The notes beneath the pieces were generated by a model, which was not told the DNA's origin, made no database searches, and saw only the letters and a program-made list of their open reading frames with translations. A stretch of DNA of 64,000 nt, from the NCBI GenBank assembly GCA_964445695.1, contig CAYULF010000007.1, positions 23,638-87,637 of the forward strand, given 5' to 3'. The translations under genes and the position numbers were made by a program. Source of the DNA: an uncultured Hyphomicrobiales bacterium (GTDB taxonomy: Bacteria > Bacteroidota > Ignavibacteria > Kapaibacteriales > UBA7675). Shown here piece after piece: positions 37,364 through 60,690 of the stretch (the stretch's first letter is position 1; each line of letters begins with the position of its first letter).

Positions 37364-37914
37364 CACCATCGACTTACTTGTACCCCACCTTACAATCCAT
37401 TTCAAACAGTACAATTGTATTACTGCAGGAGGACTGCTTCCCGCACAGCGGGATTCTCGGCATCTTTTTAAGCCATCCATTCGCTCACAGTACGATGTTG
37501 ATTCATCGTCTCCGGATCGCTTTACAACGCGGATTTTCTTGTAGTTGCCCCAGAGTCTGTTCTACCGGTTCTGATTGACTTGCTGCGTATCAGCATACCC
37601 CAGTTCTACCATAGTCAATCATCGCCAGACTTCATACAACAGGTTAATGTTAACGCGTCCCGGCGGCAATTCCGTCGGGTCACACCTGCCTACGCGTCAA
37701 TTTCTCGACGGCCTCACGGCGCCTCCTTTGGATGCCCGGAGCCGGCGGACGCGTTCTGCATTGAAGTTTGACACTATTGACCTGCATGTAAGCTCTACAG
37801 CCGGCGATGCACTGCATCGTTTGTTTAATCACTTTTTTACACACTGAAGCCTGCTGCCATTCAGCAGGCCGGGGATACCTCTATCCCCGAACTCAATGAC
37901 AAACAGGAGTTTGT

Positions 37915-40689
37915 ATGCAGAGATCAGATTGTTTATACACTTTTTTTAACAGTCGCCGCTCAGGACCGACGAGTTGGCCGTTCCTGACAGCGCTTGTGCT
38001 GCTGTTCTCACCCGTTTTTTTTACAGCTTTACAGGCCGCTCCCGATGACGGCGACTGCTGTGAGAGCATAACCTTGCGCTACGTTAACTCGGAGATCGGC
38101 GATTGCTGTTTTGACCTGTACATTGCATTTGACGAAGACTTTGATTGCAACGTCGATAAAGCGCGGATTACCATCCAGGGCGATCCCGTTACGCTGACTG
38201 TTGAAAACTCAGAATGGCAGCCCGTAATCAGCGGGAATGAGGCGACCTTCACCGGCGTGCCCACTGCAGGAGACGAAGTGTACCTGGGAACCGCTTGCAT
38301 CACCGGAGCAGAAGCCTGCTACTCGCTCACATTTGAGTACTGTGATGCCGACAGCCAGCAATGGGTCGTATGCAAAGACTCGTTTAAACTTTACTGCAGT
38401 ATTGCAGATGCTTCTTTGTGCGGCACAAAGTACGAAGACCGCAACTGCAACGGCATCCGCGACGAAGGTGAACCGGGAATTCCGGACTGGACGATTGAAA
38501 TTCACAACCTTGAAAACAATCAGACACTTTCGACGACAACCGACGCGGACGGCAATTACAAGTTCGAAGATCTCGACCTGGCGCCTTGGTATGTCTACGA
38601 AGAGCAAATGGACGGATGGGCCCAGACCGCGCCTGTCCACGGTCGATATTTTGTTGAACTGACGGAAGGTCAGACAATCGAAAATCTCGATTTCGGCAAC
38701 ATCAGCGTTTGCCCGGCGGATGACCGGACTGTGTTAACATTTCTGGCGGGCGAAAAAGACAACTTCGATCCCGACGCCGACACTCCAGCCGCATCGCTCA
38801 GTCCGAGTTTTGCCGAATACCTGTCGGGGCGCGCCGTGACCGGATTTGACGATTCGGACATCGACCATTTCTTTGCACACAGTTTTACGGATTTTGGAAT
38901 GGACAACTGCTGCCTTGTTGCGGCCTGCCTGACAATTCATATGCGCACAAACAACTCCAATCTGAGCCGCAATGACGGCATTGGCTTCCTGCAGGACGGA
39001 GTTGGCCTGTATTACAATACCATTTCCAACCTGCTCGGAGGAATCACCTGGCAGAATCAACCGGGAACAACACTTAAACTCGACCTGGGCAATCTGCTGA
39101 CGAACAACGGTACAAGCATTCTACCATCCCTGCGCGACGGAACACTGGACTTTTTTGTCCAGGATGACACGCAAGTCGACTGGGTTGAATTGACCGTGGA
39201 GTATTGTTGTCAATCGGATTGCTGTGAACACCTGACGCCGAGCTATACCAACGTCGGCGATGAAGGCCCCTGCTGCTTTGAGTTTAATGTCTCCGTGGCG
39301 GAAGACCTGGGCTGTGAGTTCGATGCCGTGCGTATGTCCGTGCTGTCCGAAGAAGCGGTGACCATAACTTACAACGGAGACGGCAGCCACGATTACACAA
39401 TCGACCCCAACCAGATTACCGTCAATCAGACACTGGAAGAAGGTGAAAACGGGCTCGGCATTTACTGTATTGAAGGGCTCTCGACCGTCTACCATATCGC
39501 CTTTGAGTACTTCGACGTTGAAACCCAGACCTGGATAAGTTGCGGCGAATACCTGCGTGTCTATTGTTTAATAGAGAGCGGATCGATTTGCGGCAACAAA
39601 TTCGAGGACACGGACTGCGACGGCTTGCGCGACATCGGTGAACCAGGAATTGAAAACTGGGAGATTGTGATTGTCGATCCGGTCTCGGGTACGGTAGAAA
39701 CGACGACGACCGACAGCAATGGCGACTACAAGTTCGAAGACCTGGAATACGCAACCTGGATCGTGTATGAAACACAACAGTCGGGTTGGGTCCAAACATC
39801 ACCGGCTGCCGGACGATACGTTGTCGTTGTTTCATCAAATTCAGCAGTTGAAAACCTGGACTTCGGCAATTCGCCCATTTGTGAAGACCCGCTTGAAACC
39901 AGCGTTCTGGTGGGAGAAATGGACGACTTCAATCCGGATCCGGATGTGCCCGCCGCATCGCCCAGTGACGAACTTGTCGAATTTCTGGCGGGACGTTCGC
40001 CAATCGTAGGTTTTGACAATGGAACCATTAACCGTCATTTTGCTCATTCCTTTACCGACCTCCTTGAAGAACTGCATCTGGGCGGCTGTTGCATTGTCGG
40101 CGCACAGCTCAGACTGCGCGTACGCACCAACAACTCGTTCTTCAGCTGGAACGACGCCATTTACTTTGTGCAGGACGGGCAGGTCATCTGGAGCTCCAGC
40201 ATCGGCGTTCTGACCGGCGTCAGGTGGACCAACCAGCCGGGAACGATCATCACGATCGATCTGGGCAACCTGCCCGGCGGCAACGCAACCAGCATTATGC
40301 CTATGTTAATCGATGGTTCACTGGACTTCTACCTACAGGATGACACAAGTGTCGACTGGGTCGAGTTGGTGGTTCAGTACTGCTGCGGCGATCACGAACA
40401 GACTGTTCCGGTCAAAGAAGATGGTGAAACGAGCGCGTTCCTGCTGAAGCCGAATCCGGCCGCCAATACGATCTCGCTTGATTTCAACGTCGCCGACGCA
40501 GGCGTCTGGAACTTCGATGTGGTTAACAACCGCGGCGAAGTAGTTTATTCGCATGGCGCAGTGAACTTCAGCGCCGGCGAACAATCGCTGAACTTCGATG
40601 TACGTTCGCTGGTTAACGGCGCGTACTTCCTGCGCATTCGCACGGCCGACGGCAGTGTTCAGTCGCTGCCGTTCTCGGTGGTTCGATGA
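37915..40689 (+). CDS. Cysteine-rich modular T9SS-sorted protein, paralog B (same architecture as paralog A; about 70% identical in the body, about 98% nt identity over the last about 290 bp)
   Basis: 924 aa. Same CC motifs and two SdrD-B-like domains. C-terminal 95 aa essentially identical to paralog A. Confidence 0.8.
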   Translation: MQRSDCLYTFFNSRRSGPTSWPFLTALVLLFSPVFFTALQAAPDDGDCCESITLRYVNSEIGDCCFDLYIAFDEDFDCNVDKARITIQGDPVTLTVENSEWQPVISGNEATFTGVPTAGDEVYLGTACITGAEACYSLTFEYCDADSQQWVVCKDSFKLYCSIADASLCGTKYEDRNCNGIRDEGEPGIPDWTIEIHNLENNQTLSTTTDADGNYKFEDLDLAPWYVYEEQMDGWAQTAPVHGRYFVELTEGQTIENLDFGNISVCPADDRTVLTFLAGEKDNFDPDADTPAASLSPSFAEYLSGRAVTGFDDSDIDHFFAHSFTDFGMDNCCLVAACLTIHMRTNNSNLSRNDGIGFLQDGVGLYYNTISNLLGGITWQNQPGTTLKLDLGNLLTNNGTSILPSLRDGTLDFFVQDDTQVDWVELTVEYCCQSDCCEHLTPSYTNVGDEGPCCFEFNVSVAEDLGCEFDAVRMSVLSEEAVTITYNGDGSHDYTIDPNQITVNQTLEEGENGLGIYCIEGLSTVYHIAFEYFDVETQTWISCGEYLRVYCLIESGSICGNKFEDTDCDGLRDIGEPGIENWEIVIVDPVSGTVETTTTDSNGDYKFEDLEYATWIVYETQQSGWVQTSPAAGRYVVVVSSNSAVENLDFGNSPICEDPLETSVLVGEMDDFNPDPDVPAASPSDELVEFLAGRSPIVGFDNGTINRHFAHSFTDLLEELHLGGCCIVGAQLRLRVRTNNSFFSWNDAIYFVQDGQVIWSSSIGVLTGVRWTNQPGTIITIDLGNLPGGNATSIMPMLIDGSLDFYLQDDTSVDWVELVVQYCCGDHEQTVPVKEDGETSAFLLKPNPAANTISLDFNVADAGVWNFDVVNNRGEVVYSHGAVNFSAGEQSLNFDVRSLVNGAYFLRIRTADGSVQSLPFSVVR

Positions 40690-47629: not shown

Positions 47630-48709
47630 TTACTGCTCGCGACCCCAGTCCACCAACAGCGTAAAACGCATCGTATTGGCAAGCGGGTGGTTTTCCTCAA
47701 CCGGGCTGATAAAGCTGAAGTCCAGCTGGAACAGCTCAAAACGCACGCCCGCGCCAAAAGTCAGGTATTGACGATCACCAATGCGCGAAGGCTCTGTAAA
47801 ATAGCCGGCACGCAGAGCAAAGACCTGCTCATACCAGTATTCCGCTCCGAGCGAAAGCTCCACGCCGCCGGTTTCCCAGGCAGTGATGAAGGATTTCGGA
47901 ATACGGTCGGCGCCGAATTCATCACGACGCACGAGCAGTTTGGCAACGTCCACCGCCAGGATCAGGTCGTTGAATTCATCGCGCACAACGTTAAGTCCAA
48001 GACCAAGCCGCAGCATTGTGGGGAGCGGATCCGACTCTTCGTTGTAGGTAACGCTGGGACCGACGTTTTGCAGGTTAAAACCAAGCGACAGTTTGTCGTC
48101 GAGGTCGACGCCGAACAGGTCGAGTTTTTCAGGCGCCCAGAGGATACCGAGGTCAAAGCCGACGGAGATACCGGTACCGGATCCCGTGCCCTGCGCATTG
48201 GCGCCTTCGGCCAGATTGGACTGTATGTAGCGGAACTGCGTTCCGAAACCAAAGTCGTTGCCGAGTTGGGTTGCGTAGGTAAGCCCGAGAGAGAACTCGT
48301 TGGAACGGAAGGTTCCGAGGATGCGACCATCGACCGAGGTCCGCGTAAACTGCCCCAGGTTCATGAGGATGAAGTTGGCGGCGACGTATCCTTCCAGCTC
48401 CTCCACGTATTGGCCGTAGGCCGCATAGCTGTAGAAGAGGTCCGCATTAAACTGCGGCAGCCATTTGGAGAAGGACAGTGAGACTTGCCGATCGTACTGA
48501 AAAGCGAGACCGCCCGGGTTCCAGAAAATGGCATTCAAATCGTCGGCGATTCCCGTCCCGGCATCGCCCATGGCGCTCGAACGAGAGTTGGGTGCGATGA
48601 GCAAGAAGGGAACGGCGGCGCCGCCGGCTTGTGCCAATGCTTCTTTTGCACCGAATCCCAGCATGAGCATCACCACGATGGCTTTTGGGATGAGATTTTT
48701 TCGCAGCAT
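47630..48709 (-). CDS. porV: T9SS outer-membrane shuttle/channel protein PorV (PorV/PorQ family beta-barrel)
   Basis: Signal peptide, then family-typical N-terminal block AVPFLLIAPNSRSSAMGDAGTGIADDLNAIFWNPGGLA. 359 aa. Immediately downstream of the porU candidate, as in the conserved porU-porV operon. Confidence 0.75.
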   Translation of the reverse strand: MLRKNLIPKAIVVMLMLGFGAKEALAQAGGAAVPFLLIAPNSRSSAMGDAGTGIADDLNAIFWNPGGLAFQYDRQVSLSFSKWLPQFNADLFYSYAAYGQYVEELEGYVAANFILMNLGQFTRTSVDGRILGTFRSNEFSLGLTYATQLGNDFGFGTQFRYIQSNLAEGANAQGTGSGTGISVGFDLGILWAPEKLDLFGVDLDDKLSLGFNLQNVGPSVTYNEESDPLPTMLRLGLGLNVVRDEFNDLILAVDVAKLLVRRDEFGADRIPKSFITAWETGGVELSLGAEYWYEQVFALRAGYFTEPSRIGDRQYLTFGAGVRFELFQLDFSFISPVEENHPLANTMRFTLLVDWGREQ

Positions 48710-48763: not shown

Positions 48764-51700
48764 CTAGCGAATAATCAACACCTGGCCGGTGTAATCTCCA
48801 CTGCTGCCGTCCGCAGCCTGAACCTGCAACCTGAACCAGTAAGGACCCGTCGGCAAGAGGTTGCCCTCGTCATCGCGACCGTCCCACGAAAGTTCGTCCG
48901 TTCTGGAAGCGCTCGCAACTTCAAGTTGACGCACGCGCATTCCATCTGTTGTATATATCTGAACTGAAGTAGCCACAACTTCCGGCGCGCTGTGCCGGAA
49001 AACAAACTTCGTTTCCTGCTGGAATGGATTTGGGAAAGCGCCGACTTCATCGAGACGGATGCCATCACCACACGGAATCCGGAAAAAGGTCTCGCTTTCC
49101 GAGAAATTATTGAAGACGTCCCAGGCGCGCACGCGCACGCTGTGGTCGCCGCATTCCAGATCAAACAGCTCCTGCTCGGCCGTACCGGTGCGGAAGTTGT
49201 CGAGCGACACGGTATAAGCGCCGGTCAGGTTGATCGTCTCGGGCGAACCGTCGATCCAGGCCTGAATATCGTGCCCGATGCCCAGTCCTGTGGCATTGAT
49301 GCCCGTGGCATCAGCCAGGTCGACAATCAAGAGCGGGACGGGCTGGACGTAGTCGCCAGGCACAAAGGTACGGTTATCCAGATAAATGTCGATCTGCGGG
49401 CCGTCGTTGTCGTCGCCGACATCGGTCGTGATGCCACCGACAGTAAACTGCTGAGTAGAACCTTTGGCGAAACGCGTAGCCGATTCGTTGAAGGCATAGC
49501 CGTAGAGGCGGCCGTTTTCATCTGAAAAACTGATGTCTTTGGGTACGACGATCGAGGCTTTGAAGCGCCCGTTGAGCACTTCCGCTCCGCTGACGTTCAG
49601 GATGCCGCCGACCAGACTGAAATCGTGTTTGGTGCGCTCCTGATCGGTGTCCGTCACTTCCTTTTCGATGTCGCTGTCATGCAAATTCAGCACGATCGAA
49701 CCGTTAAAGGTGTTGTCGACATCTTCGCTGCCGGGAATGGCGACATAACCTTCGATCTCGACGGTAGAAAGCGCCTGCAAACGCGGCGACGTACCTTCGG
49801 ACAGATCAATCCCGTTGATTTTGCTGATATAGACACGTGCCTGCGGAATGAGGATGTTCATCGCCGGATCGCCCAGCAGATAAAACTTGCGGTCGTTGGT
49901 GCCGGTCCGTTCCTGTTTGACGTGAAACAGAACCTCGCCGCTCGTAAACTGGCGTCCCGATGTGTCGTCGAACATCAACCCGTAAAAAGTCTCGTTAATA
50001 CGCGCATTTTGATTGGCGTACACCGTCCGGACCGACGAGAAAATACCGATTGCACCGCCATTCTCCTTGAACAGTAGATCTTCAGCGCCGCTCTGGCGTG
50101 AGGGATCGTCAAAACGACCAAAGTCGCAGGTCGCCGCCGTCAGGAAAAAGGGCTTGTCATTATTCTGAAAGAGAGCAATCGTCTCATCTTTTTCGAAAAT
50201 CTGCTCGTGCGCCCAGACACGCGGATTGCCGTGGCCGATCCAGTTGAGCAGAAGCGTGCCGCTGTTGACGGAGGAAACTATATCCTGCGTCACTTTCGGC
50301 TTGCGGCGGCCGCCGGGGATATTCTCGGTCGGGTAATCCGGCAGGTAGATTTTGCGCAGCTTCATCGACGAGGGAATCAAACCGGCGAGTCGCTCTGACT
50401 GCGTCGTGTGCAGTGAACCGTCGCCGGGGCGCGTCACTTCGGCCTGAGAATCATCTGCAATCAGCGTAATTGTCGTACGCCAGTTTGAGATAGACGATTC
50501 GCGTTCGTAGTGCGCGAGTTTTTCCGTGTAGATGGAACCCTGAGAGTTGGAAGTCACCGGGATGCGGCCGAGCGCGATGTCCACCAGCACATCGTCGCCT
50601 ACGACCATCACAAAGTAATCTTCAGTCAGGAACGTGGTATTGACGGCGTGCAGGACATCATCCAGATCGAGCGACTGATATGTCGGCACGAGGTTTTGCT
50701 GCGTGGTATTGATGCTGCGGTAGTCGTAGTGCCCGTCGCCCCACATGAGCGCGTAGCGCGGTTTTACGCTCCAATCCGCCATGGCATGCGCCAGGAAGTC
50801 GCGCACGGCGGTCGGATCGGGCATGCCGCTTGCATATTCGTTGTACAGCTGATCGGTCGTTACGATCGCGATTTTGAGTGAACTGCGGGCCTCGCGATAA
50901 GCTTTGAACTCGCGGGCGCTCTCCAGCAGGTCGCGGTGCGTAATAATCACGTAATCGGCGGCCAGGTCCGACTCGCGAAGGTCGGCCCACTCGATGCGAT
51001 CCAGGGAGGCCACGTTACGCGTCTGACCGCTGACAAAGTAGCGCGCCGGTTCAACCGGATTTGAATTGGCATTGAACACCATGGCGCCACCGGTGCTGGA
51101 CTGGTTGAGCAGCAGTTGCGGGCGGGCGCGGTCCGTGACGTCAAAACCAATGATATTGCCGGAAAACCCGGAAATGTTGTAGTGCGTTAAGCCCGGCTTT
51201 TGCTGGTCGGAGAAAAACTCGATTGAATTGTCAATCGCGCGGAAAGGCCGCGGATAGTGAATCTCAAACCAGTCCACATAGCCGAATGCGGCCTGATTCT
51301 GCGTGTTGTTGGAATAGTCGAATTGCATTTCGGCCGCGCCGGTCAATGAAGACGCGGGAACGGAAACCTGGCGTTCGACAAGGCGCGCAACCTGATACGA
51401 TGTCGTCGCAATGGACTCAAGCGGCATCGTGCCGATTTCCTGCTGCCCGAAGCGAATGTCAAAGCGTCCGTTGGACGAAGATTTGTGCCCCAGCATATAG
51501 CGGAACAGCACGTCGCCCTGGTTCAGCAGGTTTTCAATGCGCGGGAAATAGGTCGCGGGGATATTCTGGTCGACGGTGCGGCCCAGCCAGCGGCGGCCGG
51601 AACCGGGGGTGTACGGATTGTTCAGTTCCTGCTCGTCATACATCCGATGTACGTAGAAGTCGGGAGTATGCACCGGTTGTCCGGAGGGCGGCGTGACGCT

Positions 51701-52765
51701 TTCGGCCCGCAGGCCGGCGCTGCCGCCGATACCGAGGATGTAGTAATTGCGATTGGAGTAGTGATTGATGAAGTGGCGGAATTCCTGGCCGTCGTATTCA
51801 AAGCCGTAGGCGGACGCGCCGTAGAAGACGATAGACTCCAGTTCTCCGCTGCCGTTCGTTTTGACGATGAGCGGCTGCTCGATCAATTCATTTGACAGCG
51901 CGTCACTGACGGCTTCCGGCAGCTCTTTGCCGCCGTGGCCATAGAGTTTGATCGTGGGCACTTCGCCCGGCGCAACGACTATTCCGGCTTCACTCAGGCG
52001 CTGAGCGCTGATGGAATAGATGCCTTGTTCATCGACGCCGACGCGGAGAAACGTGCCGGCATCGGCTGCGAGACGATCGGTGCCGCCTTTCTGCAGACTC
52101 TCCGGCAGTTTTACCGGCTGGACGCGCCAAGACGCGGCCGCATCTGCATTCACGACGCGGAACATCGAACGCGGTGACTGCGACGTCGCTGCTGCCACAT
52201 TGCCGGCCATGAAGTCGACTTCAACCTGAATCGACGTGGGAATTTCGGTTGTACCTGTCGCGTCATTGTAGCGAGCAGCTACAAAGCGCAGCCCGGCGAC
52301 GTGCAGGTCGCGTGCAACCCCAAGGTACTTGATGTCCGCCCAGGAGTTGGAAGAAAGAACCTCATCTGTGCCTGTCTTGGCCGCCACTACGTCGGCAGAC
52401 TCTTGCGGCCAGGCGGCAAGCCCGGCGTTGCAGGAACGCACCGAGACGGCGTTGATCGTACGAATTGCAAACATGCCGTCATCGGGCACTGCAATCGGCA
52501 GTTGGAAGACATAGGCGGTCTGTCCGCCGGCAGTTTGATTGACATCCGTACCAATAATATTCGGTCGGACCTTCATCGAGTTGCCGATGTACAGAGTGTC
52601 CCAGGAGACAATTTTGGGCGTGTATTGCAACACGAGGCGGTGCTGATTCGATTCAACGATCGAGACGCCCTGGTTAGACCAGGCGTTGTCAGCAGCAGAA
52701 ACGGTGTGTACGAAGCAAGGAAGGAAGGCCGAAGCCATCGCAACCGCAACCAATAATGTCCGCAT
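48764..52765 (-). CDS. porU: T9SS C-terminal signal peptidase/sortase PorU candidate (gingipain-like C25 peptidase family, about 1333 aa) with its own C-terminal domain
   Basis: Signal peptide. C25-like His/Cys regions (NWIGHGNPRVWAHE; LTAATCDFGRFDD). C-terminal ...GPYWFRLQVQA...GQVLIIR tail. Synteny with porV. Confidence 0.7.
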   Translation of the reverse strand: MRTLLVAVAMASAFLPCFVHTVSAADNAWSNQGVSIVESNQHRLVLQYTPKIVSWDTLYIGNSMKVRPNIIGTDVNQTAGGQTAYVFQLPIAVPDDGMFAIRTINAVSVRSCNAGLAAWPQESADVVAAKTGTDEVLSSNSWADIKYLGVARDLHVAGLRFVAARYNDATGTTEIPTSIQVEVDFMAGNVAAATSQSPRSMFRVVNADAAASWRVQPVKLPESLQKGGTDRLAADAGTFLRVGVDEQGIYSISAQRLSEAGIVVAPGEVPTIKLYGHGGKELPEAVSDALSNELIEQPLIVKTNGSGELESIVFYGASAYGFEYDGQEFRHFINHYSNRNYYILGIGGSAGLRAESVTPPSGQPVHTPDFYVHRMYDEQELNNPYTPGSGRRWLGRTVDQNIPATYFPRIENLLNQGDVLFRYMLGHKSSSNGRFDIRFGQQEIGTMPLESIATTSYQVARLVERQVSVPASSLTGAAEMQFDYSNNTQNQAAFGYVDWFEIHYPRPFRAIDNSIEFFSDQQKPGLTHYNISGFSGNIIGFDVTDRARPQLLLNQSSTGGAMVFNANSNPVEPARYFVSGQTRNVASLDRIEWADLRESDLAADYVIITHRDLLESAREFKAYREARSSLKIAIVTTDQLYNEYASGMPDPTAVRDFLAHAMADWSVKPRYALMWGDGHYDYRSINTTQQNLVPTYQSLDLDDVLHAVNTTFLTEDYFVMVVGDDVLVDIALGRIPVTSNSQGSIYTEKLAHYERESSISNWRTTITLIADDSQAEVTRPGDGSLHTTQSERLAGLIPSSMKLRKIYLPDYPTENIPGGRRKPKVTQDIVSSVNSGTLLLNWIGHGNPRVWAHEQIFEKDETIALFQNNDKPFFLTAATCDFGRFDDPSRQSGAEDLLFKENGGAIGIFSSVRTVYANQNARINETFYGLMFDDTSGRQFTSGEVLFHVKQERTGTNDRKFYLLGDPAMNILIPQARVYISKINGIDLSEGTSPRLQALSTVEIEGYVAIPGSEDVDNTFNGSIVLNLHDSDIEKEVTDTDQERTKHDFSLVGGILNVSGAEVLNGRFKASIVVPKDISFSDENGRLYGYAFNESATRFAKGSTQQFTVGGITTDVGDDNDGPQIDIYLDNRTFVPGDYVQPVPLLIVDLADATGINATGLGIGHDIQAWIDGSPETINLTGAYTVSLDNFRTGTAEQELFDLECGDHSVRVRAWDVFNNFSESETFFRIPCGDGIRLDEVGAFPNPFQQETKFVFRHSAPEVVATSVQIYTTDGMRVRQLEVASASRTDELSWDGRDDEGNLLPTGPYWFRLQVQAADGSSGDYTGQVLIIR

Positions 52766-53364
52766 ACTCGTCCTTTATCGACTTAAATGAGGTCGTGCGC
52801 GATATCTACGGTAAGGCGATCTGCTCGTCGCAGACGTGTATTACCGATAGCTGTCAAACTTTGCGGATATTAACAGGGTAGCAGTATGTGCGATAGACGG
52901 GCCCGTTTTGTTGGTAAATTTCGTCCAATTTACGCGTTGTCGGCACAATGAGTCAAGGGAAAACTGACTGACCTGCCTTGAGCGAAACTGGCCGGCAAAC
53001 TTGAAGCACTTTGTGCACCGGCAGTAAAGACTGCTTTTATCATTGATTCGGGGTCCCTTGCACCGACTGTTTACAGCCGCAATCAGGTAGTGTCAACCGA
53101 ATCTGCGATGCACAAGTTCCACGCTGGTCGTGCGAGTGCTTGCCCCTAGTAAACCGGATTTGCGGCTTTGCGTTACAGCGCCGCACTCCTTTGTTTGTCT
53201 TTTGTTTGCCACTGAATTTCGAACTACATGAAGACGCGACGGAGCAACAAAACACGACACATTGAGGCTTCAACCGTCCAAGGACTCAAAGCTCATATGA
53301 TTGTCACATCCGTGCCGTTATAGCGCCCATACTTCGCAGTCGAACGCCACAATCCAACAAACAA

Positions 53365-53395
53365 CAAGGCCGGACCCAATACAGGTCCGGCCTTG
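53365..53395 (-). terminator. Perfect 12-bp palindrome hairpin between the Omp28-like/T9SS gene and porU; acts as terminator on the minus strand
   Basis: caaggccggacc-caataca-ggtccggccttg; minus-strand continuation UUGUUUGUUGG. Confidence 0.6.
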
Positions 53396-53442
53396 TGAAT
53401 ATCTGACTCAGCAGGCATCAGGATTACTGATGCACCGACTGA

Positions 53443-55947
53443 TTACTTCGTGTTGACGGCGGGAACAGTGATCGACTGTTCGCCGGATTCCATCACGATG
53501 AAGTAGGTACCGCCCGGCAGATCCGTAGCGTCGAACTGCGTCGAGTACGAACCCGGAGCCAGGATGCCGTTCGCAAGTTGAGCAACTTCCTGACCAGCCA
53601 GGTTGAAGACGGAGATCGAGACGTTCTGAGCGGCCGGCGAGGTCAGAGAGTACTCTACCATCGTGCTGCCATAGAACGGATTCTGCACCGTACGCAACGT
53701 GAGCATGTCGTTTTGCGCTTCGTTGTTCGCAACGCCGGAGACCGTGAGGTCGGTCGTAGCGGTCAGGTCAACGAACCAGGATTCGCTGTTGGAAGCGTTC
53801 GACGAGATGAACATGAAGGCGGCGTATTCTTTTTCAACACCGGCTTCACCCGTGAAGCTGACATCGATCATAGCGGACGAGTTCGGCTCGATGTTCATCG
53901 GCAGAGAAACGTTGTTCACGCTGAAGAAGTCGTCTTCGATCGAGATGTCGGAGATAACCAGCGTTTCCGAACCCGTGTTGCGAATCTCGTAGGATTCAAC
54001 TTTGGTTTGACCCGGGTAGACGTTGCCGAAGTCGAGCTCGATTTCAGCGTCGATAACCGGACCTTGAGCAGCGTCGGTCGACAGCCAGTCCAGAACGCGC
54101 GTCATGATGTTCACGCGGTCGTTAACGTTGGCCAGCGCTTCCATACCGAAACCGCCATAGTAAATTTTACCTTGAGCCTGACCGATCACAGCTTTGACGG
54201 CGGCAACGTTGGCCATCGCATTGTCCGTGTAGAAACAGGCTTCAGCCGGACCGGAACCGATCGACATCTGATCCGTGAACGGATCAAAGGTCGGCCACGA
54301 TTGCTGGTTGTACTGGTTGGCCTGAGCAATAGTGATGCCGTTACCGATTTCGTCATTGGCAACACCATTGATCGCAAAACCACTGATCGACGCGCCGCCG
54401 CCCTGATTGAGCTGATAGCGCTGCAGCGGAGCCGTATTGAAGTTCACACCAAGCGTCGTGGCAAAGAATGCGCGCGTCGGCTCGAGACCATCAGGCGTCG
54501 GCGTGCTCAGAGACGCGCCGGCCGAGAAGTGCGAGAAGACGGCAATGCGTTTGCCCTGAACCAGCCAGCGCTGAACATTCGACAGCCAGTAGTTGTTGAG
54601 AACGCGCTGTTCGCCGGTAATGACCTGCGGGTCAAAGCGCAGCGGCAGGATGTGCTTCTCAATGTCGTCGCCAAAGGCCGTCATGTTTTCCGAGGTAGCC
54701 AGAACAGCAATGCTCTTGCCGGCGTATTTCGGGCTCTGCTCAAGCGTTGCATTGCGATAGATCGAAGCGGCATAGGCGTTCAGACCCGTCCAGACAACCA
54801 CTTCCGGCGTACCGGCGAAGATTTGCGGCTCAAGGATTTCGAGGTCGGCAACTTCACCCGGAGCGTAATCTTCGGGCAGTACGGCGCGAACTTCGATCAG
54901 CGAACCTTCCAGGAAAGCTTCCGAACCCGTATAGGTATAGACAGCTTCTACAACCTGCGTAGCGCCGGCTTCCATCGTGAAGGTCTCAGGCGACATCTGG
55001 ACAGTTACACCGTCCGGCAGATTGACCGAGCGAACTTCAGCCATGACAGCGTGGTCGTCGTCGTTGATCACGTTGAACGTGCGCGTAACCTGCGGCGTCT
55101 CGGAGGTCAGACGAATCATCGGATTGCCAACCCACTCAGCGTTGAGTTCGTGGCCCTGGATGTTCGAAGCAGCCTGGAAGATTTCGTGCGTGAAGTCGCT
55201 TTGAACAAAAGCAACCACGTAGATTTCGTCCTGCGGAGCCAGCTCATCGTAGGTCAGCGAGTAGCTGAAATCGTAGGTATTCGAGGAACCCGGATCAATC
55301 GTGATTTCCGTGCCGGCAGGCGACGGAAGCATGTCGAGAGCGACGTCCGTGTGCAGGAGTTCACCGTTGTGACCAGGCAGCGTTTCAGCCAGGTTCGGCA
55401 GCAGAACTTTGCGGGCCACTACAACGACGTGCAGTTTGACGGTACCGAGGTTGGCGCCTGCTTCGGAGTCAACCTGAACCGAAACTTTGATGTTCTCCAT
55501 GTCGCTGCGATCTTCCGTCACAGACATGGTAACCGGCGTGGCTTTGGCTTTGATCGTATTGATAGCCGTTTCGGTAGCGTCCATCAACTGCATGTTGGGG
55601 TTCTGCTGACCGCCAACCCAGCCGTAGGGAATGCCGTACTGACCATCGGTGTCATAATAAGCGATACGCGTGCGACCCATGTCGCCGCGAGCCGCGTCGC
55701 GATCCTGCCAGGGATCATTGGGCCGCGGCCACCACATGTGCATGCGGACCGACAAGACACCCTCGCGATAATCGACGAGCTCATTTAATACTTCCGTTGC
55801 GGGCACGCAAGGAGGGCAGGTGGCGCTGTTGAATTCTTCAACCAGTGCAACGCGATCGGCTGCAACTGCTGAAGTGCTCCATGCCATGAAGCCGGCAGCA
55901 ACCACTAACAAAAAGGTAGAAATTCTGCGCATTGTCAGAAACTCCAT
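53443..55947 (-). CDS. Large Omp28-related/thioredoxin-like-motif protein with T9SS C-terminal domain (834 aa)
   Basis: Signal peptide. N-terminal LVEEFNSATCPPCVPATE (EEF..CxxC) motif shared with the adjacent Omp28-like lipoprotein. C-terminal QNPFYGSTMVEY...GGTYFIVME...AVNTK tail. Confidence 0.6.
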   Translation of the reverse strand: MEFLTMRRISTFLLVVAAGFMAWSTSAVAADRVALVEEFNSATCPPCVPATEVLNELVDYREGVLSVRMHMWWPRPNDPWQDRDAARGDMGRTRIAYYDTDGQYGIPYGWVGGQQNPNMQLMDATETAINTIKAKATPVTMSVTEDRSDMENIKVSVQVDSEAGANLGTVKLHVVVVARKVLLPNLAETLPGHNGELLHTDVALDMLPSPAGTEITIDPGSSNTYDFSYSLTYDELAPQDEIYVVAFVQSDFTHEIFQAASNIQGHELNAEWVGNPMIRLTSETPQVTRTFNVINDDDHAVMAEVRSVNLPDGVTVQMSPETFTMEAGATQVVEAVYTYTGSEAFLEGSLIEVRAVLPEDYAPGEVADLEILEPQIFAGTPEVVVWTGLNAYAASIYRNATLEQSPKYAGKSIAVLATSENMTAFGDDIEKHILPLRFDPQVITGEQRVLNNYWLSNVQRWLVQGKRIAVFSHFSAGASLSTPTPDGLEPTRAFFATTLGVNFNTAPLQRYQLNQGGGASISGFAINGVANDEIGNGITIAQANQYNQQSWPTFDPFTDQMSIGSGPAEACFYTDNAMANVAAVKAVIGQAQGKIYYGGFGMEALANVNDRVNIMTRVLDWLSTDAAQGPVIDAEIELDFGNVYPGQTKVESYEIRNTGSETLVISDISIEDDFFSVNNVSLPMNIEPNSSAMIDVSFTGEAGVEKEYAAFMFISSNASNSESWFVDLTATTDLTVSGVANNEAQNDMLTLRTVQNPFYGSTMVEYSLTSPAAQNVSISVFNLAGQEVAQLANGILAPGSYSTQFDATDLPGGTYFIVMESGEQSITVPAVNTK

Positions 55948-56213
55948 TTTTAGATAAAGAAATAGTACATGTCAAAGACGTGTTCGAAGGTTGTAGTTCG
56001 CTTCCGAATTTTTCAGTGTGTGTATGGAAGCGTTGCTCCGATTTATGCAGTGACGATAAGGTCAGAAATCAAGTTAAATCGGAAAATTGAAGCAGCCCCA
56101 CTTGCTCCAAGCAGAAAAATAAGGATAAATGTTGCACACTTGCAAGTAGTGTACAATGTTTCCCCTTTTTGTCCTACCGCGCTGATAACAAATAGCGGGA
56201 GCACCAAACAGCT

Positions 56214-57080
56214 TTATTCTCCCACGTGAGCCGCTTCGACCTGCAGGATGCGATCTGTCCCCTGAAAATCGTGCACCATGACGACAACTTCCAGCTCGTC
56301 CGGGTTCCATTCTTCAGGATCAATTGTCAAAGTCCAGGACTTCTCGATTTCGTCGCCCACCGAAGCAGCCGAAGCCGCAACCGGTTCGCCCCAGGTTCCA
56401 TTAAAGGAGGCGCGCAGAACGTGCTGGTGCACGTAGTCTTGCACGATATTCGGGGTTTTGCGCTCGTCCACCTGAACCTGCACAAAGTTATTCTCGATCA
56501 GGTACACGGCGACATAGTCGTTTTCGCCGCCATCTTCAAAATACGTAATCGTAGCATCGACGCTTACGGTGTTGGTCGCTTCGTTGTAATCGCTCGTGAC
56601 TTCAATCATCATCGGCGCGTCCTGCTCCAGCAGTGAGTTTACCGACGAGCGCCAATCTCCCGGACCGACGACTTTGGAGTTGTTGAAGTCGGAACGATTA
56701 ATCAAAGCGTTCGGTGTACCGGGTGCGTTGACGTCAAACTTGTCGTCGAGTTGATCACCAACCGGCGTACGGAAATCGTAGGTAAAGGGTGAGCTGCCGC
56801 TGCCGGTTTCCGCAAAGAAGCCGGAGTGCACGGAAATGAGAATTACCTGATCCTCGTTGCGTGCTTTGATATCAGCCGCGATTTCAGTTGCCGCCGGACA
56901 GGTACGGCAGCGGAATCCGGTAAATTCCTCCAACAAGATCTTTTGCACGCGATCGCCGACCGGGCCGCCGGAATTGCCGTAGCTGTCCGGATCGCGATAG
57001 GGACCGTTTACTTCATCACAAGCACCCAACAGAAACACGGTTGCGATAAGACCAACGATGAGTTTTTGTTGTTTCAACAT
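56214..57080 (-). CDS. Omp28-related outer-membrane lipoprotein with CxxC motif (ORF open to 57158; lipoprotein signal starts at Met 57080)
   Basis: Lipobox VFLLGAC. ILLEEFTGFRCRTCPAATE motif. About 288 aa. Confidence 0.6.
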   Translation of the reverse strand: MLKQQKLIVGLIATVFLLGACDEVNGPYRDPDSYGNSGGPVGDRVQKILLEEFTGFRCRTCPAATEIAADIKARNEDQVILISVHSGFFAETGSGSSPFTYDFRTPVGDQLDDKFDVNAPGTPNALINRSDFNNSKVVGPGDWRSSVNSLLEQDAPMMIEVTSDYNEATNTVSVDATITYFEDGGENDYVAVYLIENNFVQVQVDERKTPNIVQDYVHQHVLRASFNGTWGEPVAASAASVGDEIEKSWTLTIDPEEWNPDELEVVVMVHDFQGTDRILQVEAAHVGE

Positions 57081-57178
57081 ATCAGCCTGACCATGTGTTA
57101 GATTCGTCGAATTCAAGAGTATTAGCGGCAGCTCAACTTGGAACGCTATGACAAACAAAAATGGGTTGCAGTCAGGAA

Positions 57179-58876
57179 TCAGAAGCTGCTGGCCAGCGTC
57201 AACAGCAAACCCGTGGCTGCGGGAACGTTACGGCAAACACCACCGACGCAAACAATCCCCTCGCGCTGACGAGCGAAGTTTAATTGAAGTCGATGCGGCC
57301 CCTGTACATAGGTTGCGTTGAACCCCAGGTAGTGAATGCGTTTTTTCTTGTCTTCGTGTCCCAGATTGTACTCGTCGGAAATCGAAAAGAACCAGTTGGG
57401 CGCCAGCGCGAGTTCGACCAGCGCAAAGGCCCAGTCCCCCGATTCGGGCTCGCCGTCAAATTCCTGACTGGAAATTGCGTATTGCAATTCGGTGCGCAGT
57501 GAATTGACCGGCGTAATTTTATATGTGATTTCCGACGTGATAATATTGCTTGTAATTACACCATAGCTGCCATTGGGCTTGCCTTCGATAATATCCTTGT
57601 TGTACGCGATGCGGAAGTACCCGAGGTTAACTTTCAAGTCTTTATCGAAGCGGCGGCTGAACTTGATGTTGAAATCGTCGAACAACCTGCGGCCGGCGTC
57701 AAAAAAGCCGGTTTCGTAGGTAAATGTATCGATCGGCGTGCGCTCCAGCGGATGCAAGCGTGCGTATTCGAGAGAAATATCGGTACCATAGCGACCACCG
57801 ATGCCGTCGCCGCGCGGAATGTTAAAGACTACACTCCCCTGCACGCCGATTTCACCATTGGCCTGAGTTGCATAGGGAAACAGCGTCACGAGGCGCTCCG
57901 TGTGCGTCTGACTCTGCGGCGGAAGGAAGTTTAGATTCAGATTGTTGGCCGTCGCCGCGCGATCTCCGCGCGAATCCATTTTGTCGACGCGTTTGGCGCT
58001 CAGCGAGATCCCCAGCCCACGTTCGGAGTAACTGGTCGACACATACAGGCCATTGCCTTCATTATAGGCGTAGTTGGACGGGTTTGACAGCGGCGAAGCC
58101 GTATCGCCCGGAAAAAAGTACACATCGGTCGCTGAAGGATCGTTGGACTTGAACGCATACTCAGTATAAAGGTTGAAGCCGCCGATGCCCAATGTAGCGC
58201 GCCCGGCAAAGGAGGCCACATTTTCCGGCAAAATGTACAGCGGATCGTCATCGGCCTGAAAACGACTGACCATACTACCACCGAGCAAAAGAACAACGTC
58301 GCCGTCATCGCCGAAGATACTACTGGCATCAACGTCGAGGTCAAGCCCGCGGATGATGCCCTCGCTCTTATTCCAGAAGCTGCGCTGCCTTCCGATCAGG
58401 CCGGTAATCGTGATATTGTCATCGGGCCGCACCTTGACGCGCAAACCGTCAATGGCGTTGTCGAAACCGAGCAGACGCTCCTCATATGCGCGCAGAATGA
58501 GTCCACTGCCAAATTGCTCGTAGAAGTCGCCCGCGGTGACATCGATAAAATCCGAGTTGTAGGTGGCATAGCGGTACGCAAACCCCTGCCCGTCGGCATA
58601 GCGATCATCAAAGCCCAGGATTGGGTTGAGATACGCTTCGTAGCGTGCCCCGGCGCTGAAGCTACCGAGCGTGTAAATCAGGTTGACGTATCCATTGAGG
58701 CGCATTTCTTCGTCGACCTGTTCCGCACCGGTCTCAGTATCATTGATGTAATACTGCGCATCGCTTTGCAGATCGCCGTGAACGGCACCGAGGTTGACGG
58801 GAAGGTCCTGGGAGGGAGCAACAGCCGGAAAAACGATCGCCGCCCCGAAAAGAGCGGCGATAGCGAACTTGTACAT
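57179..58876 (-). CDS. Outer-membrane beta-barrel protein (DUF6029-like porin candidate)
   Basis: Signal peptide MYKFAIAALFGAAIVFPAVA. Amphipathic beta-strand periodicity throughout. C-terminal Phe (…LTLASSF). 565 aa. Confidence 0.55.
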   Translation of the reverse strand: MYKFAIAALFGAAIVFPAVAPSQDLPVNLGAVHGDLQSDAQYYINDTETGAEQVDEEMRLNGYVNLIYTLGSFSAGARYEAYLNPILGFDDRYADGQGFAYRYATYNSDFIDVTAGDFYEQFGSGLILRAYEERLLGFDNAIDGLRVKVRPDDNITITGLIGRQRSFWNKSEGIIRGLDLDVDASSIFGDDGDVVLLLGGSMVSRFQADDDPLYILPENVASFAGRATLGIGGFNLYTEYAFKSNDPSATDVYFFPGDTASPLSNPSNYAYNEGNGLYVSTSYSERGLGISLSAKRVDKMDSRGDRAATANNLNLNFLPPQSQTHTERLVTLFPYATQANGEIGVQGSVVFNIPRGDGIGGRYGTDISLEYARLHPLERTPIDTFTYETGFFDAGRRLFDDFNIKFSRRFDKDLKVNLGYFRIAYNKDIIEGKPNGSYGVITSNIITSEITYKITPVNSLRTELQYAISSQEFDGEPESGDWAFALVELALAPNWFFSISDEYNLGHEDKKKRIHYLGFNATYVQGPHRLQLNFARQREGIVCVGGVCRNVPAATGLLLTLASSF

Positions 58877-59016
58877 TTGCCTGCCTGCACACGGTTAAAC
58901 AACAACTGTCAAACTGATGAAGATTTACGAGCGGCGCAGAGACGCGCCGCCCGTATGATCACGCCGGTGGGCCGACAACGGCCCGTAGACCGATGGTGTT
59001 CAGCCTGCCGTACAAA

Positions 59017-59553
59017 TTACAATTCGCCCGCTTTGACTTTGCGGACGACTTCGAGAAGTTTCAATTCGTCGCCGGGAGCATAGGACGTGTGTTCGTACAC
59101 GACCTCGCGATTGGCATTCAGCACAAAGGTGTGCGGTACTGCATTGACGTGCATTGCGCGTTTCAGGTCGGCATTTTCGTCGATGTAGACATCGTATTCC
59201 CACCCGCGGCCGTTGATAAAGGGTTTGACCTTGCGGCTGGTTCGCGCATCATCCACCGAGATGGCCACCAGCTTGACGCCGGTTTCTTCCTGCCAGTCGG
59301 GGAATTCATCGTGAATCGTGGAAAGCTCGAGAATGCAGGGTTTGCACCAGGTGGCCCAAAAGCTGACGATAATCGGCTTGCCGTCGTTCTTGATGTTTTC
59401 CGTGTTGAAATTCTTGCCGCTCAGGTCTTTTACGACAACTTTCGGCATGGACTTGGTGGCCTGATTATCCGCGTCGTCGGCATAGCCCGCAGTTACTATC
59501 AGAGCCAGCGCAATGCAACAGCTCAGCGCAATCAAACGCTTCAGGTGCATCAT
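59017..59553 (-). CDS. TlpA-like thiol:disulfide oxidoreductase (thioredoxin fold, periplasmic)
   Basis: Signal peptide. WATWCKPC active-site CxxC. AhpC/TSA-like length (about 177 aa). Confidence 0.85.
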   Translation of the reverse strand: MMHLKRLIALSCCIALALIVTAGYADDADNQATKSMPKVVVKDLSGKNFNTENIKNDGKPIIVSFWATWCKPCILELSTIHDEFPDWQEETGVKLVAISVDDARTSRKVKPFINGRGWEYDVYIDENADLKRAMHVNAVPHTFVLNANREVVYEHTSYAPGDELKLLEVVRKVKAGEL

Positions 59554-59967
59554 GTCAATCCTCCAGATACAAATATTGTATTGTGTTTCAAGTCAAAATC
59601 AATGTCGCACGAATGCTGGTTGACAGACCGGCGATCGAGAGTACGACGGCGCTTTGATTCCTTCATCCAGCATAGCTCGGATCACAATACGTGAAAAACT
59701 GTCCAGCCGGGAACAAAATCGGCAGCTGCCGTGTATATGGCCAGAAGCCAAAATGGTAGCGGAAATTAGCATTATTTGTTCCGTACTACAAATTTGGAAA
59801 CTCATACGCAATAGGTCCGTAACTAGTTCCCAATCTTTGACTTTGGGCTCTTGTATAAGCAAGAGTTTTTCCGTATCTTTCGCGCAATCGTACCAAAAAT
59901 GTACGGTAGTGATTATCCAAAGCTTTGAACAATATTTGCATACAAATACATCCGAACGGGTAGAACG

Positions 59968-60690
59968 ATGAAGTTAGCGCGACTCTTTTTAGCGGCCATG
60001 CTAGTTGTTTCGGTGGGAACCGTGACCGCCCAGGCACAAAGCATATTCCTGTTTGCCGGTCCGCACACGATTCAAAGCGATGCAGAAGAATTTGACGTCG
60101 AAGGTAAACTTCCAGTCAGGAACTCCGGCGACACGCAACTGGACATTAAAGTCCGCATGTTTGTCGAGGAAAAAATGGACGGCCAGGACATCTACTTCTG
60201 CTGGGATCAGTGTTTTCCGCCCACTATCGTTGAATCGGGCACGGTTCGCCTGATGCCCGGCGAGTCCTCTGACCTCTTCTCGGCGCACATCAACCCCAAT
60301 GGCGTATCCGGCAAAGCGGTTGTTCGCTTTGAATTCTTCCCGGTCGACGAACCCGAAAAGATTGTCACGACGCGCTTCATCTTTGAAATCGGCGAAACGG
60401 CAACGGATGTGGACGAATTCGGCGGCGCCATTGTGGCACCTCAATTGACGTCCTTCCCGTCGCCGGCAATCGAATCCGTCGAACTCAGCTTTGAGATTCC
60501 CGGTTCGTTCAACAATGCTCAGCTGACGGTGCACAACCTGTTCGGCAATGAAATCGCGACGATTCCGGTAACGGCGGTTCGCGGTTCGACGCTGCTCGAT
60601 GTCACGGGGTACAATCCCGGCGTGTACTTCTACACGTTGACAGTCGACAACCAGCGCTTGCTGAGCAAAAAATTCGTCGTAAAACGTTAA
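59968..60690 (+). CDS. Small secreted protein of unknown function with T9SS C-terminal domain
   Basis: Signal peptide MKLARLFLAAMLVVSVGTVTAQA. C-terminal ...NPGVYFYTLTVDNQRLLSKKFVVKR tail. Confidence 0.65.
   Translation: MKLARLFLAAMLVVSVGTVTAQAQSIFLFAGPHTIQSDAEEFDVEGKLPVRNSGDTQLDIKVRMFVEEKMDGQDIYFCWDQCFPPTIVESGTVRLMPGESSDLFSAHINPNGVSGKAVVRFEFFPVDEPEKIVTTRFIFEIGETATDVDEFGGAIVAPQLTSFPSPAIESVELSFEIPGSFNNAQLTVHNLFGNEIATIPVTAVRGSTLLDVTGYNPGVYFYTLTVDNQRLLSKKFVVKR

Follow-up and report, generated by a model that had tools for sequence, protein, structure and literature searches.

A conserved tlpA–DUF6029–omp28 gene cluster of the FCB group as a candidate thiol-redox module at the outer membrane

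Results

Genes at the locus

The window is the whole stretch of DNA that was analysed, 64,000 nucleotides long. Open reading frames and Pfam matches confirmed four minus-strand genes in it, encoding a TlpA-like thioredoxin, a DUF6029 barrel, an Omp28 lipoprotein and a large Omp28-domain T9SS protein. Chance was ruled out by family E-values of 1e-9 to 1e-168 and by the recurrence of the same gene order in dozens of genomes. The original prediction named these four and overlooked a fifth linked gene on the plus strand (59968-60690), divergent from tlpA, which encodes a 240-aa protein with a T9SS type-A CTD.

The tlpA product (59017-59553, minus strand) is a secreted thiol:disulfide oxidoreductase of 178 aa. 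It carries the expected WCKPC motif at residues 69-73 (59335-59349) and matched Pfam AhpC-TSA (67 bits) and Redoxin (60 bits), with Thioredoxin_8 also above cut-off. Its NCBIfam scores were 89 bits for ResA (cut-off 170) and 37.5 bits for the TlpA equivalog (cut-off 230). Because these lie below the cut-offs, the protein is best classed as TlpA-like and as orthologous to neither ResA nor TlpA. Cluster-linked orthologs formed a tight group (164-219 bits) with signal-peptidase-I type signal peptides and a common FWAtWCkPC motif.

The second gene (57179-58876, minus strand) encodes the predicted Phe-terminated outer-membrane β-barrel of 565 aa, ending in LASSF, which matched Pfam DUF6029 over its full length (561 bits, E = 2.9e-168). 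DUF6029 barrels were 44-47% identical across phyla, with 70 invariant columns. The only two cysteines of the window barrel lie in CVGGVC (57233-57250), 17 residues from the C-terminal end, where they bracket a Gly-Gly turn immediately before the final strand. The full motif was present in 85/85 loci and in 118 of 121 database proteins, and the three exceptions retained both cysteines. We infer that the pair sits at the outer end of the last hairpin, where it could simply form a structural disulfide. A profile search of PDB chains with the barrel family gave no significant sequence match, Wzi included.

The Omp28 lipoprotein lies on the minus strand at 56214-57080. Its mechanical open reading frame is longer (56214-57158, 314 aa), but the database gene call and homologs begin at MLKQQ (57080), giving 288 aa. 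Its anticipated lipobox, LLGAC (57018-57032), was borne out, and it scored 103 bits against Pfam Omp28 and 142.8 bits against NCBIfam NF033782 (cut-off 150). The protein consists of a thioredoxin-fold domain, with the active-site segment EEFTGFRCRTCP at residues 51-62 (56895-56930), and a β-sandwich.

The large gene is an 834-aa open reading frame (53443-55947) with EEFNSATCPPC at 55807-55839 and a Por_Secre_tail, as originally described. The database gene call and a Shine-Dalgarno-like GGAG motif point to a start at Met6 (55932), so that the gene would span 53443-55932 on the minus strand and its product would have 829 aa. It scored 36.4 bits against Pfam Omp28 and 28.6 bits against DUF1223, and its CTD scored 25.4 bits against Por_Secre_tail and 25.6 bits against TIGR04183 (cut-off 23). 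Counted in the 834-aa numbering, an HBP35/Omp28-type thioredoxin domain plus β-sandwich (about 30-262) is followed by an Ig-like domain (264-378), an alpha/beta domain without an assigned family (380-625), a HYDIN-type Ig domain (632-732) and the type-A CTD (743-832). For the alpha/beta domain we found no Pfam or PDB sequence match.

In the 240-aa protein, Por_Secre_tail scored 30.9 bits (Pfam) and TIGR04183 30 bits, and the N-terminal domain of about 140 aa gave no family match. It contains CWDQC (60199-60213), and its family conserves FCWxxC(Y).

The Omp28-type proteins have a thioredoxin-like fold

The EEF..CxxC segments shared by the lipoprotein and the large protein are thioredoxin-fold active sites. 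Both AF2 models (pLDDT 92.6 and 88.4, respectively) have the strand-CxxC-helix arrangement and the conserved proline loop. In the lipoprotein, C58/C61 lie between strand 1 (48-54) and helix 1 (61-74), and in the large protein C44/C47 lie between strand 34-40 and helix 47-57; an invariant proline (P123 and P107) precedes the next sheet strand. Foldseek searches of the PDB with the lipoprotein model returned HBP35 (5Y1A, E = 1.4e-10) and next DUF1223 (2AXO, E = 8.5e-10), while the large-protein model matched 5Y1A at E = 4.5e-12. The lipoprotein-family profile also found HBP35 (E = 2.5e-9), with the HBP35 CGYC aligned to CxNC, and the two family profiles matched one another in hhalign (probability 99.7%, E = 2.7e-26).

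The lipoprotein CxxC was retained in 120/120 homologs. Among relatives of the large protein of 640-1100 aa it was kept in 91 of 112, chiefly as CGPC or CPPC. About nine of the roughly 100 relatives inspected at the N-terminal motif had lost the cysteines, so the redox site of the large protein appears to be dispensable. The lipoprotein family further conserves His85, Asp102, Arg129, Glu196, Gln203, Tyr216-x-His218 and Arg223, a pattern as compatible with a pocket for a ligand as with simple disulfide reduction. NCBIfam includes an 'Omp28-related selenoprotein' model, and selenocysteine is typical of redox active sites (PMC1794560).

A T9SS-sorted protein with a thioredoxin-like domain had been considered unusual. 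It has a precedent in P. gingivalis HBP35, a cargo of the T9SS whose thioredoxin activity has been demonstrated: the protein reduces insulin, and its C48S/C51S mutant does not (PMC2907840).

The cluster is conserved and separate from porU-porV

We surveyed gene order in 80 species-level genomes or loci from Bacteroidota, Ignavibacteria and Kapabacteria, and conservation of the block in relatives was upheld. Omp28 immediately followed the barrel in 68/74 loci, the tightest link in the cluster; tlpA immediately preceded the barrel in 64/75, and the full trio was present in 57/70. In some Ignavibacteria-type loci (L003, L006, L072) a TPR protein replaces tlpA. A large Omp28-domain partner was adjacent to the trio in 20-21 of 63 loci, depending on the distance criterion (about one third), and all ten large partners sampled had a T9SS CTD. 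Full-length homologs of the 240-aa protein adjoined the cluster in 25 of the 63 loci with enough upstream DNA, and all five genes occurred together in 16/63. No further gene was consistently linked among the 80 loci. Alignments showed near or full invariance of one cysteine pair in each component. By these comparisons the block is part of an envelope gene cluster, widely conserved but unstudied, that occurs in the FCB group (Bacteroidota, Ignavibacteria, Kapabacteria, Chlorobiota).

The block had been placed directly upstream of porU-porV. This did not hold, as a 677-nt gap separates the large gene from porU (48764-52765), which lies downstream of the block and is followed by porV (47630-48709). 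The gap contains, on the minus strand, a strong intrinsic-terminator-like hairpin 3' of the large gene (53364-53396; 15-bp stem, nine G-C pairs, T-rich tail) and a promoter-like site upstream of porU (TTGACT-N18-TAAATT, 52927-52956). One diverged relative, L087, has the same six-gene order, including the 240-aa homolog, with the large protein 38% and the barrel 54% identical. It has an equivalent 14-bp hairpin 3' of its large-protein ortholog, and when the gaps were aligned the two hexamers and their spacing formed the main conserved block. The promoter-like site marks porU-porV as a separate transcription unit. Among the other loci, porU lay within 10 kb in just 2/80; the tie is thus lineage-specific, and the adjacency is a local gene-order feature outside the module. 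Co-transcription of all four genes, unlike their conservation, is doubtful, because the large gene probably has its own promoter.

Discussion

A proposed thiol-redox module and its alternatives

On balance we lean towards reading the block as this lineage's version of a conserved cluster that would form a thiol-redox module at the outer membrane. The core of the cluster is the secreted TlpA-like thioredoxin, the DUF6029 barrel and the Omp28 lipoprotein, with two T9SS-exported proteins as frequent additions, one multidomain with an Omp28/HBP35-type thioredoxin domain (829 aa here) and one of about 240 aa. Periplasmic TlpA would hold the CxxC sites of the Omp28-type proteins in the redox state they need, and might do so for the barrel cysteine pair as well; its own recharging would presumably fall to a CcdA/DsbD-type protein of the inner membrane that is encoded elsewhere. 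The lipoprotein would act with its dedicated barrel. At the outer membrane or the cell surface, the HBP35-type domains would exchange thiols and disulfides or handle ligands through their cysteines, and the two T9SS cargos would carry this activity out to the cell surface. A disulfide relay across the outer membrane is conceivable but rather unlikely; the invariant barrel cysteine pair and the fifth linked protein with its own conserved pair lend it some circumstantial support.

An unlikely alternative is a ligand-acquisition complex, in which the barrel would be a channel, the Omp28-type proteins would be haem or metal receptors or chaperones binding through cysteines and conserved histidines, and TlpA would serve solely to maintain the cysteines in reduced form, the role that it has for the copper chaperone ScoI. 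The C-terminal part of HBP35 binds hemin, and growth of an hbp35 mutant suffers under hemin limitation (PMC2907840). The YLHQH of HBP35 aligns with the conserved YvHxHVLR of the lipoprotein family, and both the lipoprotein and the large-protein family conserve a histidine directly following strand 2 (His85, His70). A dedicated, highly conserved barrel beside a lipoprotein recalls uptake systems, and one unlinked large-protein homolog adjoins an imelysin-like Peptidase_M75 gene. Yet hemin binding by HBP35 is independent of its cysteines (PMC2907840). The YxHxH motif is not retained in the large-protein family, whose predominant CGPC and CPPC are reductase-typical, and the selenoprotein subfamily favours catalysis over binding. 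The module also occurs in many free-living aerobes capable of haem biosynthesis. That the cluster instead encodes a structural barrel-lipoprotein complex like LptD-LptE, with structural disulfides and TlpA as a dedicated folding or isomerisation catalyst, its real job not being redox, we regard as improbable. The C-x4-C around a Gly-Gly turn looks like a typical stapled hairpin, no other link in the cluster is as tight as that of barrel and lipoprotein, some lineages lack tlpA in the operon, and Bacteroidota outer-membrane barrels can be linked covalently to lipoproteins by conserved cysteines, as in SprF-GldK (PMC12635249). However, the lipoprotein CxxC lies at the catalytic position that is canonical for a thioredoxin fold and is accompanied by the conserved proline loop; it is also homologous to the HBP35 active site, and there is a selenoprotein subfamily.

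It is very unlikely that the module is a T9SS accessory acting on cysteine-rich T9SS cargos in general by reducing or oxidising their disulfides, even though this would account for the adjacency to porU-porV, which L087 retains, and fits the presence of two T9SS cargos among the accessory members and the restriction of the module to genomes of T9SS-bearing phyla. The rarity of nearby porU and the terminator and separate promoter-like site speak against it, and the core trio often occurs without a linked T9SS cargo. Nor did we find any connection between the block and the CC-rich paralogs within the window, so the suggested action on such cargos was not supported. From a reported HHpred similarity between DUF6029 and Wzi-barrel-only homologs encoded close to OPX polysaccharide-export genes (PMC9603273), a Wzi-like porin that exports or anchors a surface polymer could be envisaged, the redox genes being incidental. 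We give this scarcely any weight, as the recurrent neighbours in the 80 loci include no polysaccharide gene, the only consistent partners being tlpA and omp28, and the barrel profile gave no significant sequence match to Wzi.

Comparison with known systems

TlpA, ResA and CcmG enzymes reduce one or a few specific partners (apocytochrome c, ScoI, CoxB). The window protein has their fold, WCxPC motif and secreted location, but it scores far under the TlpA, ResA and DsbE equivalog cut-offs and belongs with its orthologs to a separate group, which is defined by being linked to DUF6029 and Omp28. For a relay, DsbD/CcdA offers a conceptual parallel, in which the cysteine pair of a membrane protein passes reducing power between thioredoxin-fold proteins on both sides. 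DsbD, however, is alpha-helical and in the inner membrane, whereas the membrane component here is an outer-membrane β-barrel, and the relay is a speculative reading.

SprF-GldK and PorG-GldK (PMC12635249) are comparable to DUF6029 in that these Bacteroidota outer-membrane barrels have invariant twin cysteines near the C-terminus, forming functional disulfides with lipoproteins. The families and partners are distinct, and the SprF CxC lies in a periplasmic tail beyond the barrel, whereas the DUF6029 C-x4-C precedes the last strand.

By domain, size and lipobox the window lipoprotein is a clear member of the family of P. gingivalis Omp28 (PG2173; PF11551/NF033782; PDB 2R2C), which its family profile found at E = 1.3e-33, although identity between the two proteins is low. 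The thioredoxin nature of this family is easily overlooked, because the crystallised 2R2C fragment and the Pfam model span just the part after the CxxC region.

The best structural match to both window models is HBP35 (PG0616/PGN_0659; PDB 5Y1A), a surface-anchored protein with a thioredoxin-like domain and active CxxC, a β-sandwich and a T9SS CTD, whose CxxC was aligned in the profile searches. In the literature searched, HBP35 was not seen to be linked to tlpA or DUF6029. HBP35 has 344 aa, whereas the large window protein has two additional Ig-like domains and an alpha/beta domain of about 250 aa, has CPPC in place of CGYC and lacks the YxHxH motif. Its lipoprotein paralog in the window has a lipid anchor in place of the HBP35 CTD.

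Four minus-strand genes and their families

All four minus-strand reading frames of the original prediction were present as described. The tlpA-like gene (59017-59553, minus strand) scored above the Pfam thresholds for AhpC-TSA, Redoxin and Thioredoxin_8. It reached none of the NCBIfam equivalog cut-offs (ResA, 89 v a cut-off of 170; TlpA, 37.5 v 230; DsbE, 41.6 v 123), but the redoxin fold and a WCxPC motif (here WCKPC) are present, so the protein is TlpA-like and not an ortholog of ResA, TlpA or DsbE. The cluster-linked TlpA carries a signal peptide of the signal-peptidase-I type, and its surface is tightly conserved. The neighbouring DUF6029 barrel (57179-58876, minus strand) matched PF19494 with 561 bits over residues 1-565 and ends in SSF, an aromatic beta-signal. 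Its closest named relatives, from Kapabacteria, are 46-47% identical.

The Omp28-family lipoprotein (minus strand, 288 aa, lipobox LLGAC) starts with MLKQQ at 57080, as judged from homologs and the database gene call. It passed the Pfam Omp28 model PF11551 (103.1, cut-off 34.9) and fell just below the NCBIfam model NF033782 (142.8, cut-off 150). The lipobox cysteine was invariant in 40/40 aligned homologs, and the mature N-terminus of the family, C-D-[KRE]-[IV]-[ED]-G-P-[YF], is conserved and acidic, which would suit either a docking motif or a signal for export to the surface.

The large protein (minus strand, 829 aa) most likely starts at Met6 (55932), to judge by the database gene call and a GGAG located 9 nt 5' of that codon. 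Behind an ordinary signal peptide that has no lipobox cysteine, Pfam and NCBIfam models matched an Omp28/DUF1223 region, an Ig domain of the HYDIN type and a T9SS sorting domain of type A. Its Omp28 match was marginal in Pfam (36.4, cut-off 34.9) and did not reach NF033782 (33.6, cut-off 150). The C-terminal sorting domain (CTD), modelled as a beta-sandwich over residues 743-832, passed TIGR04183 (25.6, cut-off 23) and lay just below the Pfam cut-off (25.4, cut-off 27). Shine-Dalgarno-like GGAGG/GGAG motifs, which are rarely used in classical Bacteroidia, stand 5' of both tlpA (59554-59580) and the large gene (55933-55950) on the minus strand.

Thioredoxin-like domains of the Omp28 proteins

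AlphaFold models, Foldseek searches and profile matches agreed that the EEF..CxxC segments, which had been proposed from their motif, are thioredoxin-fold sites. The AF2 model of the lipoprotein (pLDDT 92.6) has a strand at 48-54, Cys58 and Cys61, a helix at 61-74 and then a beta-sandwich; that of the large protein (pLDDT 88.4) has a strand at 34-40, Cys44 and Cys47, and a helix at 47-57. In both, the CxxC thus comes right after strand 1, where helix 1 begins. A proline that is invariant in each family, P123 before strand 124-127 in the lipoprotein and P107 before strand 108-111 in the large protein, is placed by sequence and model where the cis-proline loop of thioredoxin lies.

The best PDB match to the lipoprotein model was HBP35 (5Y1A, E 1.4e-10), a T9SS cargo with a thioredoxin domain at the surface of P. 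gingivalis, followed by the DUF1223 protein 2AXO (8.5e-10). The large-protein model also matched 5Y1A (E 4.5e-12, TM-score 0.58 normalised to target). A profile of the lipoprotein family recovered the Omp28 fragment 2R2C (1.3e-33), HBP35 (2.5e-9) and small archaeal thioredoxins, and aligned the CGYC of HBP35 with the CxNC of the family. Profile-profile comparison aligned 244 columns between the lipoprotein and the large protein's N-domain (probability 99.7%, E 2.7e-26), which shows the two to be homologous. On the models, both N-domains have a thioredoxin-like fold and are predicted oxidoreductases. Omp28 lipoproteins thus appear to be HBP35-type thioredoxins, a recognition that seems new to the searchable literature.

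Conservation of the cysteine pairs

The CxxC proved to be conserved in homologs. EEFTGxxCxNCP was kept in 120/120 lipoprotein homologs. For the large protein, a word-index search gave two proteins, so an exhaustive representative search was used instead; it returned about 100 full-length relatives of 800-930 aa as well as HBP35-sized proteins of about 350 aa. A CxxC motif was present in 91/112 hits of 640-1100 aa, mainly as CGPC (42) or CPPC (33). Nine individually examined family members have lost the cysteines. In a minority of the family (P0135, P0182, P0202, P0207, P0239, P0240, P0258 and others), one or both are replaced, as in NASSASCA or NAFSESAA, and the architecture is otherwise kept, so the redox site of this family is dispensable in some lineages. 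NCBIfam includes an 'Omp28-related selenoprotein' model (NF045500), a sign that at least part of the wider family has a catalytic redox site. No in-frame TGA was found at the CxxC in any fetched locus.

The barrel has just two cysteines, both in a CVGGVC motif that lies 17 residues from the C-terminus. This motif was complete in 118/121 database proteins and in 85/85 loci; the other three proteins retain both cysteines. The last strand of an outer-membrane barrel terminates in the periplasm, so the hairpin before it should face outward; we infer that the CVGGVC hairpin does so here.

A gene cluster conserved across genomes

We fetched 80 loci from different GTDB species using the barrel as anchor, and scored their neighbours with in-house profiles. 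DUF6029 shows unusual conservation for a barrel of the outer membrane: the window protein is 44-47% identical to Bacteroidota and Kapabacteria proteins, and 70 columns are invariant. The proposed block is conserved in relatives. The omp28 lipoprotein gene immediately followed the barrel in 68/74 loci with room, an orthologous tlpA immediately preceded it in 64/75, and the trio was fully adjacent in 57/70. A larger Omp28-domain protein lay beside the trio, mostly upstream of tlpA, in 20-21 of 63 loci, depending on the distance criterion. All ten sampled large partners had a T9SS CTD and nine passed the Pfam Omp28 threshold; in L009 and L015 the match to the window's large protein also took in its Ig and alpha/beta domains. 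The same arrangement was seen in Pfam-annotated contigs. A diverged relative, L087, in which the large protein is 38% and the barrel 54% identical, retains the exact order tlpA, DUF6029, omp28, large protein, porU, porV. Because gene order recurs across loci, chance adjacency of the four genes was rejected.

A further protein, missed in the original prediction, is encoded divergently from tlpA (59968-60690, plus strand, 240 aa). It has a type-A CTD (Pfam 30.9, cut-off 27; TIGR04183 30, cut-off 23). Full-length homologs adjoined the module in 25/63 loci (E 1e-7 to 3e-27), including 16/21 loci having a large partner, and one is present in L087. The family conserves an FCWxxC(Y) pair in an N-domain of about 140 aa that matched no family. 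This protein is probably the fifth in the cluster and might be a substrate or a partner. With its FCWxxC pair and the CVGGVC of the barrel, every cluster component carries a conserved cysteine pair.

Clustering of all neighbours revealed no other consistently linked gene family, lineage-specific housekeeping genes alone recurring, and CcdA, DsbD, cytochrome and Sco genes were absent from the clustered neighbours of the fetched loci. Several local variants were seen. A secreted TPR-repeat protein of about 210 aa replaces tlpA upstream of DUF6029 in some Ignavibacteria-type genomes (L003 5713-6339, L006 8028-8720, L072 9297-9944). In 16/80 loci a small outer-membrane beta-barrel-like protein of about 200 aa comes right after omp28, often with UbiX next (L016 6726-7343, L017 12587-13294, L018 12490-13155, L024 12537-13199 and 12 others); it could be a lineage-specific addition or a mere neighbour. 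The L032 locus has two copies of the trio (9374-12543 and 15385-18554), separated by about 6 kb and scoring identically against the profiles, either through recent tandem duplication or as an assembly artefact in a metagenome-assembled genome. In a single case (L086 7846-11703), a large-protein homolog unlinked to the trio has yidC on one side and, on the other, a gene for an imelysin-like Peptidase_M75 protein; that family is associated with iron uptake.

Transcription units and porU-porV

Downstream of the large gene lie porU and then porV, to which the original prediction had tied the block. A terminator with a 15-bp stem (53364-53396, minus strand) follows the large gene, and an equivalent hairpin follows its L087 ortholog. 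A promoter-like site, TTGACT-N18-TAAATT (52927-52956, minus strand), stands 5' of porU, with a counterpart at about 10985-11020 in L087. It is the main conserved block in an otherwise diverged gap (677 nt in the window, 545-677 nt across the two genomes), and so is a candidate porU-porV promoter. The terminator and this conserved site make porU-porV a separate transcription unit, and porU lay within 10 kb in just 2/80 loci. A functional operon with porU-porV was rejected, and the proposed link should be dropped. Upstream of the large gene there is a further gap, of 281 nt (in L087, 570 nt), with a promoter-like site and a weak hairpin in it, so the core operon is probably tlpA-DUF6029-omp28, as read from these sequence features. 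An Rfam scan of 52000-60200 gave sub-threshold noise only, and the 677-nt gap held no convincing ORF.

A possible redox module at the outer membrane

The most likely reading of the homology, fold, gene order and cysteine pairs described here is a thiol-redox module at the outer membrane. In such a module, the dedicated periplasmic TlpA would control whether the Omp28-type CxxC sites, and perhaps also the cysteine pair of the barrel, are reduced or oxidised; the lipoprotein would work with its barrel, and the two T9SS cargos would carry the system out to the cell surface. A bolder version, which we consider unlikely, makes the cluster a thiol-disulfide relay that spans the outer membrane. Reducing equivalents from TlpA would then pass through the DUF6029 barrel, via CVGGVC and/or the lipoprotein threaded through the barrel, to surface-exposed HBP35/Omp28-type thioredoxins and the small T9SS partner. 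This would be DsbD-like in function, an analogy based here on the invariant barrel cysteine pair and its putative position before the last strand; we know of no outer-membrane electron conduit for thiols. If true, it would give FCB-group bacteria an enzymatically maintained cell-surface redox system.

Two rival readings seem less likely. The cluster may serve to acquire haem or metal, with TlpA in the part of a maintenance reductase of the Sco type, in favour of which are the hemin binding of HBP35, a YxHxH motif conserved in the lipoprotein family and a conserved histidine near the CxxC. It may also be a structural barrel-lipoprotein complex with structural disulfides. The earlier proposal that the block acts on cysteine-rich T9SS cargos in general is poorly supported. 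Cargos with a T9SS CTD are numerous in the window (5034-6422, 6412-10965, 13088-16912, 34347-37151 and 37900-40686); among them are the two CC-rich paralogs and a protein of 1275 aa that has five Ig repeats of the HYDIN type. An Omp28 or thioredoxin domain was found in none of these. A Wzi-like role of the barrel in polysaccharide export, the subject of the only two papers in the searchable literature that mention DUF6029, is also poorly supported; the barrel-family profile found no PDB sequence relative.

We found no report of an association of these families in the searchable literature, nor any functional study there of PG2173/PG2174 or of Omp28 with thioredoxin, selenoprotein or T9SS. The conserved three-to-five-gene association thus appears to be undescribed in that literature, as does the pairing of Omp28 with a cysteine-bearing barrel. 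All parts fall in named families and HBP35 offers a biochemical precedent, so the window genes are not a new kind of protein, and we regard the finding as a sound, moderately interesting lead. It bears on the function of Omp28 and on the physiological role of the HBP35 thioredoxin domain. The new handles are the identity of Omp28 proteins as HBP35-type thioredoxins, their cross-phylum tie to one highly conserved barrel with an invariant cysteine pair, and their further link with two T9SS cargos and a dedicated TlpA. The result is a set of three to five genes, compact enough for genetic work in tractable organisms (Flavobacterium johnsoniae or P. gingivalis, for example), with which to ask how and why Bacteroidota maintain cysteines that are redox-active at the cell surface or outer membrane.

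Comparison with HBP35

A T9SS-sorted protein with a thioredoxin CxxC had been judged unusual. HBP35 is a direct, characterised precedent, being a T9SS cargo whose insulin reduction is abolished in a C48S/C51S mutant (PMC2907840). Its YLHQH, the proposed hemin cluster (H204-H206) in the beta-sandwich, aligns with the YxHxH kept in the lipoprotein family and not kept in the large-protein family. In overall layout it is the large protein that resembles HBP35, with a thioredoxin-like domain and a beta-sandwich followed by a T9SS CTD.
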